64,000 nt of DNA from IMG/VR virus record IMGVR_UViG_3300022589_000001, one strand, 5' to 3'. The position numbers were made by a program, and so were the translations under genes. The DNA is from a virus. Position 1 is the stretch's first letter. The number at the start of each line of letters is the position of its first letter. This document shows, in pieces, positions 59,481 to 60,353 of the stretch. Below the pieces are notes generated by a model. That model saw only the letters and a list, made by a program, of their open reading frames with translations. It was not told where the DNA came from and made no database searches.

Positions 59481-60353
59481 TTAATTTACAAAATAGTTAT
59501 ATGCTTTCAAGGCATTAGACTGGCGGATTCCATAAGAACCACTGCCGCATCTTTCATATGCCTTTGCGAATGCCAATGCAGCATCCTCAGCATCTGTTAA
59601 AGCACAGAAACTTTCATAATCCATGCCACTTCTAAATGCGTATCCGTATGTATCCAACTCTTTCTTAACAGTATCTCTTAAGAAATCGAGTTGGGCTTCA
59701 AGGCTTGCGCCCTGGATACCTGGGTAATATCTACCAGACCATTGGCAAATACCGTAGTAGCCTCCGCCACTATGACCATATAAGAAAGGCTGTAAGTTGA
59801 GAGTCTGTCCGCCAACTTCCGCCATCATGTTACCCATGACACCGGCGCAAACATAATCATTCCAACCTAATTCGTCTTTCATATATCTCCAAACTTGTGT
59901 TGCTACTGGATATTCTCCAGCTTTCTCGCTCCACATAGCTTCAATACGTACTTCTTCAGCTTCGATTGCGGCGATTGTTTCTTCATACTCCGCCATCAAG
60001 CCTCGCACATCTGCGAGCTCCTCTTCTACTAAGTCTCTTTCATCTGCTAACTCTTGGTTGTTTAACAGCTTAATGAGACGGAACTCATAGTCTTTACAAG
60101 TTGCCAGTTCAGTCTTTAATACTTCTTTATCAGTGGAATCTTCATATGTCATTTCTTGAAAATATTTCAACACTTCTGGAACTTTAACTTCTTCTGTCGG
60201 GTTTTCAATCATCATCACAGCGGCCGTAGCCGCCGGGTCTGAACTTGCTGCACTGTCATCTGTTTTATTAAATGCTAACGATGTTGTTGTAATAAGTGCC
60301 ACAAGTATAATTACTATACCTACTATACGTAAGCAGTTGAGCTTCTTTTTCAT
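59481..60353 (-). CDS. Signal-peptide/TM-anchored peptidoglycan hydrolase-like protein of 290 aa. It has a coiled-coil linker and a C-terminal phage 'tail-lysozyme'-like domain with a YGICQW motif.
   Basis: The N-terminus reads MKKKLNCLRIVGIVIILVALITTTSLAF. The C-terminal domain reads ...GGGYYGICQWSGRYYPG...AFAKAYERCGSGS. The domain call rests on recalled motif similarity. Confidence 0.6.
   Translation of the reverse strand: MKKKLNCLRIVGIVIILVALITTTSLAFNKTDDSAASSDPAATAAVMMIENPTEEVKVPEVLKYFQEMTYEDSTDKEVLKTELATCKDYEFRLIKLLNNQELADERDLVEEELADVRGLMAEYEETIAAIEAEEVRIEAMWSEKAGEYPVATQVWRYMKDELGWNDYVCAGVMGNMMAEVGGQTLNLQPFLYGHSGGGYYGICQWSGRYYPGIQGASLEAQLDFLRDTVKKELDTYGYAFRSGMDYESFCALTDAEDAALAFAKAYERCGSGSYGIRQSNALKAYNYFVN

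Follow-up and report, generated by a model that had tools for sequence, protein, structure and literature searches.

The Phage_lysozyme2 domain (PF18013) is represented by the N-terminal lysozyme domain of gp13 of phage phi29 (PDB 3CSR/3CSQ), a tail protein that is assembled in the cytoplasm, is fused to an M23 peptidase and carries no export signal. The literature otherwise treats PF18013 as a tail lysin or as a module of multi-domain endolysins. Here we analyse a gene of this family in a 64,000-nucleotide stretch of DNA (IMG/VR record IMGVR_UViG_3300022589_000001; the whole stretch is called the window below) from an SPbeta-like phage of gut Clostridia. The gene occupies positions 59481-60353 on the minus strand, and its product, the window lysozyme, shares 18-20% identity with gp13. 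In contrast to gp13, it is a single-domain, exported protein with a helical hairpin and two nearly invariant cysteines, and its gene lies in a block that is oriented with the replication genes. We propose, with a probability of about 0.6, that it is an accessory, exported peptidoglycan glycosidase that is independent of a holin and is not the endolysin of the phage. The novelty is one of architecture and gene position within an enzyme family that is already known.

A second point of reference is YorM of SPbeta. Like the window lysozyme, YorM consists of an N-terminal hydrophobic segment, a linker and a C-terminal wall-enzyme domain, and both genes lie within a collinear SPbeta-type replication module (yorF...yorK-yorL-yorM). 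The YorM linker is charged and lysine-rich, and yorM follows the polymerase gene (after yorK/yorL), whereas the lysozyme gene follows a RecJ-like gene. The catalytic folds are unrelated: YorM has a 3D/MltA-like barrel (3D domain PF06725, E=1.2e-11), whereas the window lysozyme has a lysozyme-like fold, lacks a 3D domain and contains PF18013 only. A search for YorM in the window and in the loci fetched from related phages gave no match. By analogy, the window lysozyme may be a functional counterpart of YorM that stands outside the YorM/Sps family. The SPbeta lysis gene blyA is presumably separate from yorM, and YorM, like the window lysozyme, coexists with a separate endolysin. YorM has been placed in the Sps family, which is described as the firmicute counterpart of Rpf (PMC1084345), and MrpR, the master repressor of SPbeta, occupies its early promoter in chromatin affinity purification and sequencing (ChAP-seq; PMC10516654). 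A census of Bacillus hydrolases lists the activity of YorM as not determined and includes other SPbeta hydrolases (PMC10653849).

The secretory endolysins Lys44 (phage fOg44) and LysTP712 share with the window lysozyme an N-terminal Sec-type signal, a muralytic domain and holin-independent export (PMC6832245). Each is the endolysin of its phage, is encoded in the lysis cassette and carries wall-binding domains such as LysM, whereas the window lysozyme has no binding domain, is encoded 18-22 kb from the cassette and is dispensable in sister phages. The GH184 fungal muramidases (PDB 8B2E, 8B2H) are secreted eukaryotic enzymes of a different family, with 12-13% identity to the window lysozyme. 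Its Phage_lysozyme2 domain is also found in DUF348-G5-x proteins of the YabE/RpfB type and in type IV secretion hydrolases; unlike the lysozyme of the phage replication module, these DUF348-G5 and CHAP proteins are cellular or conjugation proteins with extra domains.

A gp13-type lysozyme domain behind an export signal

The gene and the parts of its product are arranged as follows.

59481-60353, minus strand: gene of the lysozyme-like protein, 290 residues, ATG start, stop codon at 59481-59483 (open reading frame (ORF) list, sequence, PF18013, dN/dS)
60273-60353, minus strand: codons 1-27, Sec-type export signal (Kyte-Doolittle, orthologue comparison, AlphaFold2 helix 2-28)
60129-60272, minus strand: codons 28-75, Ser/Ala/Glu-rich linker, mostly predicted to be disordered (predicted local distance difference test score, pLDDT, of 49-54 at residues 31-50)
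59913-60128, minus strand: codons 76-147, long helical hairpin before the catalytic domain
59484-59912, minus strand: codons 148-290, Phage_lysozyme2 (phi29 gp13-type) catalytic domain
59817-59819, minus strand: codon of Glu179, putative catalytic acid in the motif G-N-M-M-A-E (invariance, alignment with gp13 Glu45)

The translation is identical to that quoted in the preliminary description of the window, which had recognised a tail-lysozyme-like domain around the motif YGICQW. The domain proved to be genuine: residues 150-288 match PF18013 with E=2.5e-17 and 63.8 bits, against a gathering score of 28.2, and the alignment spans positions 2-140 of the 140-position profile. The motif YGICQW falls within the conserved core of an alignment of 62 family members, in which W155, G174, N175, M177, E179, G201, W205, Q221, Y266, E267, R268 and R277 are invariant. 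A profile of the family retrieved the N-terminal lysozyme domain of gp13 from the PDB (3CSR, E=1.8e-5), and the window lysozyme shares the fold of this domain. E179, present in 62 of 62 members, aligns onto Glu45, for which a catalytic role in gp13 has been proposed and which corresponds to Glu41, a residue essential in a GH184 muramidase; the family of gp13 itself has no CAZy number and functional data on it are lacking (PMC10394673). On this alignment, the window lysozyme is predicted to cleave glycan strands via Glu179. With the single lysozyme sequence, a PDB search gave no match, gp13 being reached only by the family profile; tblastn against GenBank phages and an NCBIfam scan also gave none. 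Pfam returned PF18013 only, with no cell-wall-binding domain of the LysM, SH3 or CW_7 type.

An AlphaFold2 model (pLDDT 91.8) comprises a helix (residues 2-28), a disordered stretch (29-59), a helical hairpin (76-147) and a globular domain (149-288). The hairpin, formed by residues 76-97 and 100-147 with a pLDDT of about 97, is the segment first described as a coiled coil. Two cysteines, C203 in YGICQW and C269 in YERC (codons at about 59745-59747 and 59547-59549), are nearly invariant in the exported subfamily only, their counterparts in gp13 being Val and Pro; a disulfide between the two cysteines or a role in the active site is conceivable.

The N-terminus begins with the basic stretch MKKKLNCLR, followed by a 12-residue I/V/L core (IVGIVIILVALI), TTTS and LA|F. 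Its best 15-residue Kyte-Doolittle window is 3.06, as computed on a fragment with an identical N-terminus. Among orthologues the hydrophobic core diverges, whereas position -3 remains small (S/T/G) and position -1 remains Ala, a pattern that appears to be the signature of a signal-peptidase I site with putative cleavage after Ala27; the signal is probably removed from the mature protein, although it may instead act as a membrane anchor. The protein family comprises 702 representative clusters at 50% identity, 150 representatives of which were sampled for their N-termini. A basic-then-hydrophobic N-terminus was found in 139 of these 150, which makes the extracytoplasmic location a trait of the family and upholds the export signal that had been proposed for the window protein. 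Other lineages have lipoprotein-type cysteines (lipobox variants) in place of the Sec-type signal. A signal-arrest-release (SAR) domain, in the sense of a weakly hydrophobic, Gly/Ala/Ser-rich N-terminal helix with no cleavage site, was considered and rejected, as the core is too hydrophobic and is followed by the conserved -3/-1 signal-peptidase-type motif; the SAR form of the endolysin that had been suggested is dropped on the same grounds.

A further motif, T-S-E-A-Y-I-P-S-E-T (variants SEANIPSE and SEDYIPSE), directly follows the signal peptide in numerous members of the family that differ widely elsewhere, including P0127, P0135, P0146, P0158, P0176, P0178, P0185, P0201, P0214, P0227, P0232, P0251, P0258, P0264, P0268 and others. 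It is absent from the window lysozyme and could be a site of processing, sorting or glycosylation.

A classical lysis cassette in the same phage

One reading in the preliminary description was a Sec/SAR-type endolysin separated from its holin, based on a holin-like gene about 14 kb away. The distance is 14.1 kb, and the gene does belong to a holin family.

44965-45369, plus strand: holin-family gene of 134 residues at the end of the tail-gene block (phrog_13712 'holin', E=2.7e-30)

The label 'holin' comes solely from the name of this family; the protein has one N-terminal hydrophobic helix. No lysin adjoins the gene in the window lineage, and a scan of every ORF of at least 100 residues with Pfam and PHROGs, giant tail genes included, found no second lysin in the window, which leaves the PF18013 protein as the sole recognisable wall hydrolase within the 64 kb.

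The cassette was found by walking rightward from the window through ThyA, formyltetrahydrofolate synthetase (FTHFS) and NAD-ligase via overlapping contigs. In a relative, the ENA contig scaffold_16 (108.7 kb), a classical lysis cassette and a homologue of the lysozyme gene occur on one contig and are all co-oriented, in the order PhoH, 776-residue lysin, 337-residue ELLD+SH3_3 protein, 145-residue protein, FTHFS, GyrB ... primase, DHH, lysozyme homologue, HD_4. The 776-residue protein has the domains Peptidase_M15+Phage_lysozyme2+Amidase_2+SH3_3. The phage of the window itself is represented by two overlapping loci: over 11.4 kb, L345 matches the window at 99.92% identity, and L349 is 99.96% identical to the window over the shared 2.4 kb and 99.95% identical to L345 over 12 kb. 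In L349, a cassette at 942-4712, directly upstream of GyrB, encodes a 769-residue lysin (M15+Phage_lysozyme2+Amidase_2+SH3), a 336-residue ELLD+SH3 endolysin and a 143-residue protein; a comparable cassette is found at L343:6059-9862. The ELLD domain reaches E=4.9e-56 in a close relative, where it is followed by two SH3_3 domains. The two cassette lysins have no hydrophobic N-terminus; in the 143-residue protein, a basic N-terminus is followed by a strongly hydrophobic segment. The calculated position of the cassette is about 15-19 kb past the right end of the window (L349:942-4712 corresponds to about 14.9-18.6 kb past position 64000) and ~18-22 kb upstream of the lysozyme gene, so that the phage has in total two PF18013 domains and two holin-like genes.

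Because the same phage carries this classical, holin-type cassette, the window lysozyme is an additional enzyme, and neither the separated endolysin nor the displaced virion lysin of the preliminary description is supported. Within 64 kb, a lone holin and a distant lysin mimicked a split lysis system, the cassette lying just outside. The lysozyme gene was also considered as a replacement endolysin that would exclude a holin-adjacent SpoIID/SH3 lysin. This was rejected, since lineages with neither gene exist, the association is not significant by count and the window phage has its classical cassette elsewhere.

Several observations concern the holin-family gene itself. The promoter-like element ATGATATAATATAAGTAAAG occurs three times in the window, at 44573-44592 (plus strand), 48111-48130 (minus strand) and 55986-56005 (minus strand), against a chance expectation of 0.02 copies. 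All three point in the coding direction and stand before a unit, namely p114b-holin, dUTPase-RuvC-TM168 and DnaE, respectively. The copy at 44573-44592 precedes the p114b-holin unit, which places this unit in the same promoter class as the replication sub-operons. A holin-family copy with 97% identity is present in L065-L067 (about 10001-10399), in a foreign context with no window genes or nearby lysin, and the gene is therefore mobile between phage types. In many relatives (L075:10576-13373, with equivalents in L152, L165, L187-L210 and L225), the holin is followed by a conserved cluster of small genes that is absent from the window and encodes a Gly-rich membrane protein, a 'MEITANAVQTV...' protein and a HExxH (M78/SprT-like) protein of roughly 100 residues. 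A search for hidden lysins in this post-holin cluster revealed only the M78/SprT-like motif.

Conservation and clean loss of the lysozyme gene

The order primase - DHH - lysozyme homologue - superfamily 1 (SF1) helicase - DnaE - guanylate kinase - NrdD is kept in about 90 fetched loci, and it persists where the flanking proteins share only 41-73% identity. Comparison with orthologues gives dN/dS of 0.14-0.19 over the whole gene, which indicates purifying selection. The catalytic domain (0.08-0.11) evolves more slowly than the signal and linker, and the linker (codons 28-75; 0.42-0.46) is the fastest-evolving part. Hundreds of near-identical copies of the gene were found in metagenomes.

This conservation is accompanied by loss. 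L192 carries the gene and L208 lacks it: over 20 kb the two are collinear (80-85% nucleotide identity), with a clean indel of ~810 bp between them. Across about 40 kb no gene was found that would compensate for the absence, and the holin neighbourhoods of the two are also collinear. Enterococcus phage VRE9_4, whose replication module is collinear with that of the window, likewise has an empty slot, and the gene is missing in several further lineages. Genome comparison thus indicates that the gene is optional and dispensable, and its clean deletion from collinear sister phages is a second result at odds with an endolysin separated from its holin.

In one lineage the slot is filled by a tandem pair of family genes (L034:10001-11040 region; L152:1394-2826), one encoding 302 residues with linker and hairpin and the other 170 residues with neither. 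The domain was also seen outside phages. An Acutalibacteraceae metagenome-assembled genome (MAG) encodes a chromosomal DUF348-G5-Phage_lysozyme2 protein (L021:3324-4499), in which the YabE/RpfB architecture carries a third kind of catalytic domain, and in a Saccharibacteria MAG a Phage_lysozyme2+CHAP protein (L029:7935-11113) adjoins a VirB4/TraG-like ATPase. These DUF348-G5 and CHAP/type IV secretion contexts mark Phage_lysozyme2 as a general module for wall remodelling in cis.

Transcription unit and timing of expression

The genes and signals around the lysozyme gene are listed below.

62576-63640, minus strand: primase-like gene, upstream, same unit as lysozyme (Pfam, NCBIfam)
62235-62579, minus strand: gene of a 114-residue protein, upstream, same unit as lysozyme (Pfam and NCBIfam scan of the unit)
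60404-62155, minus strand: DHH/RecJ-like gene, upstream neighbour (Pfam, NCBIfam)
60363-60372, minus strand: ribosome-binding site GGAAGGAAAG, 10 nt upstream of the lysozyme start, read from the sequence
59444-59479, minus strand: intrinsic terminator closing the primase-DHH-lysozyme unit, 15-bp stem with 5 GC pairs, then TTTTTTGTTT
59305-59333, minus strand: sigma-70-like promoter of the next unit (HD gene onward), TTGACT-17-TATAAT with extended -10
58611-59270, minus strand: HD_4 gene with partial SpoT/RelA similarity, downstream neighbour (Pfam, NCBIfam)

The position between a RecJ-like gene and an alarmone-hydrolase gene was described correctly from the start: a DHH gene lies upstream and a SpoT-like HD_4 gene downstream. 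The strong terminator was likewise rightly assigned to this gene; its 15-bp stem and T-run, read from 59479 to 59444, were also recovered as inverted repeat I15. The DHH and lysozyme genes are separated by 50 nt, and no strong promoter was found in this gap. The promoter behind the terminator, read from 59333 to 59305, matches at 11 of 12 positions and has the best sigma-70-like score of the region. From this layout, the primase-RecJ unit seems to end with the lysozyme gene as its final cistron. No SPBRE-like operators were found near the gene.

The product of 58611-59270 is a stand-alone HD hydrolase domain of the SpoT/RelA type and a candidate (p)ppGpp hydrolase. The gene after it (58018-58611, minus strand) encodes a 197-residue protein with a poly-Asp/Glu tail at its end. 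Both genes are confined to the closest relatives.

A clue to timing comes from the genetic code. Many relatives read TAG as Gln (code 15), whereas the window phage uses the standard code; recoded loci include L187, L188, L200, L210, L219 and about 50 other GK-centred loci (L150-L229). 'Split' homologues in these relatives were considered as pseudogenes and rejected, as the breaks are in-frame TAG codons exactly where an intact copy has Gln, which identifies them as code-15 recoding. Recoded stops have been reported to accumulate in structural and lysis genes and far less in replication genes (bioRxiv 10.1101/2021.08.26.457843). We therefore expressed the TAG share as the fraction of Gln positions encoded by TAG across the recoded loci examined.

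Primase, helicase and DnaE: 1.2%
Lysozyme homologue: 3.7%
SpoIID-type endolysin: 11%
Holin: 13%
Fibre, TM168 and RuvC (late genes): 33-53%, with RuvC at 53%

By this measure the lysozyme gene appears nearer to the replication class, and together with its position this suggests that it is expressed alongside the replication genes.

Proposed role of the exported lysozyme

In the mechanism that we favour, the lysozyme would be made from the primase-RecJ transcript of the SPbeta-like phage, and its Sec-type N-terminal signal would carry it across the membrane independently of any holin. The roughly 120-residue linker and helical hairpin would hold the gp13-type domain in the wall of the infected cell, where the mature enzyme (in other lineages a lipid- or membrane-tethered form) would act in cis on the glycan strands of its producer from the replication phase onward. 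The purpose may be to loosen or pre-weaken the thick Gram-positive wall during replication, such that the cell enlarges and later lysis is faster. The preliminary description had offered an early-expressed superinfection-exclusion or wall-remodelling factor as one of three readings; this reading survives and has gained the operon structure, the synteny, the low TAG share and the YorM parallel, while the physiological role itself is one that we infer.

Several points count against this proposal. Its purpose, wall loosening or priming, is purely a deduction. The TAG counts are phylogenetically dependent, 14 of the 18 lysozyme TAGs being one inherited TAG, and replication genes are variably TAG-free in other phage clades (bioRxiv 10.1101/2021.08.26.457843). 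The long minus-strand block holds the classical lysis cassette as well as the replication genes; since the cassette shares this block and the holin unit shares the element of the DnaE unit, position alone is no proof of early expression. Finally, a functional link between the lysozyme and the holin-family gene at 44965, which has no adjacent lysin and carries the DnaE-type element, is possible.

An alternative purpose for an exported enzyme of this kind, which we consider unlikely, would be that of an Rpf/Sps-like growth factor, a phage-borne analogue of the muralytic factors of resuscitation and stationary-phase survival, whereby wall turnover or muropeptide signalling restarts a slow-growing or stationary host, which could then sustain the replication of a phage genome that measures at least about 190 kb. 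Phage_lysozyme2 takes the place of the 3D/Rpf domain in the chromosomal DUF348-G5-x protein, and the Sps family, to which YorM of SPbeta has been assigned, is described as the counterpart of Rpf in firmicutes (PMC1084345); in the window lineage the neighbouring gene encodes a SpoT-like HD hydrolase, and the lysozyme gene is in the TAG-poor class. This support is entirely indirect, however: the HD neighbour is limited to the closest relatives, the gene is dispensable in sister phages and no signalling partner was identified. If this explanation were true, the role would be shared with SPbeta YorM through non-orthologous domain displacement, in gut Clostridia.

It is quite improbable that the lysozyme is a secretory endolysin of the Lys44/LysTP712 kind, which Sec would export in advance and which would be released into action once the membrane potential is collapsed by the holin-family protein encoded at 44965. 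Secretory endolysins whose signals are cleavable are well documented (PMC6832245), and the window would fit one: the lysozyme is its sole recognisable wall hydrolase, no lysin adjoins the holin-family gene in this lineage and, in the relatives examined, the lysozyme gene never co-occurs with a lysin adjacent to the 134-residue holin. The cassette of the same phage, with two signal-less SH3 lysins and a small membrane protein, argues otherwise, as does the absence of a compensating change in 40 kb of sister phages that lack the gene. Moreover, the lysozyme has no cell-wall-binding domain, and its TAG share in recoded relatives is three-fold below that of the bona fide endolysin and the holin.

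Superinfection exclusion, in which the exported enzyme would alter the wall or a receptor and block adsorption or injection by further phages, seems very unlikely. A probable expression with the replication genes and an extracytoplasmic location would fit an accessory gene of phage competition, as would the presence/absence polymorphism and an evolution faster than that of the flanks. Yet this fast evolution is in the signal and linker and not in the catalytic domain, and a glycan-strand hydrolase would be an odd adsorption blocker; we know of no example of such a mechanism for the family. A displaced virion lysin packaged in the tail like gp13 is highly improbable: although the closest solved structure is a tail protein and the scan of the tail genes in the window, tape measure included, revealed no lysin domain, virions are assembled in the cytoplasm whereas a Sec or lipoprotein signal is present throughout the family, the gene lies in the replication-oriented block and unit on the strand opposite to the tail and other structural genes, it is absent from sister phages, and the signal-less, multi-domain lysin of 769 residues is a better candidate.

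If the accessory, exported glycosidase is accepted, large SPbeta-like phages of Firmicutes recurrently carry a third wall enzyme that is neither endolysin nor tail lysin, is self-exported and is encoded among the replication genes: YorM in SPbeta and a gp13-type lysozyme in a large clade of abundant gut Clostridia phages. Its function is testable, since sister phages with and without the gene occur naturally and yorM is a tractable analogue in Bacillus subtilis. The practical value would be a compact, single-domain predicted muramidase that needs no holin, from phages of gut anaerobes that are hard to lyse.

The phage and its relatives

The replication genes of the window are collinear with those of SPbeta (YorF, AAA_24/YorG, YorH, DnaB/YorI, primase/YorJ, DHH/YorK and DnaE/YorL), and a YomO-like gene precedes the gene of a 3085-residue tape-measure protein. 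Among annotated phages, the gut phage Phass-1, large Enterococcus phages and the SPbeta group come closest, with about 39% identity in the polymerase. Related contigs, 148-176 kb long, fall into bins of Lachnospiraceae, Oscillospiraceae, Acutalibacteraceae and other Clostridia; the GC content of the window is 37.5%. No relative of the YomO-like protein was found in IMG/VR, and a scan of JGI metagenomes gave only relatives of 43-54% identity; an IMG/VR scan from the FTHFS gene gave distant phages only.

The tail block (35-44527, plus strand) contains giant ORFs of 3085 (the full tape measure), 1592, 916, 918, 1849, 619, 2487, 684 and 2023 residues, with nearly no Pfam matches, only PhageMin_Tail and one BspA-type leucine-rich repeat. 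When the tail genes of the window were scanned, the tape measure showed no lysin domain, unlike CwlP of SPbeta. In some relatives, a Hin-type invertase lies beside fibre-like genes upstream of the holin (L257:2297-9951, L282:1820-9951), together with an apparent reverse-transcriptase cassette, TAG-rich and similar to a diversity-generating retroelement (DGR-like), which suggests two ways of tail-fibre variation. Some close relatives have a sugar-nucleotide/glycosyltransferase island between the lysis cassette and FTHFS (L339:3804-9880; also L340 and L341), with two copies of Glyco_transf_8, a GHMP kinase, a HAD phosphatase, an epimerase, a nucleotidyltransferase and a SIS gene; this island may serve in modification of DNA or of the cell surface.

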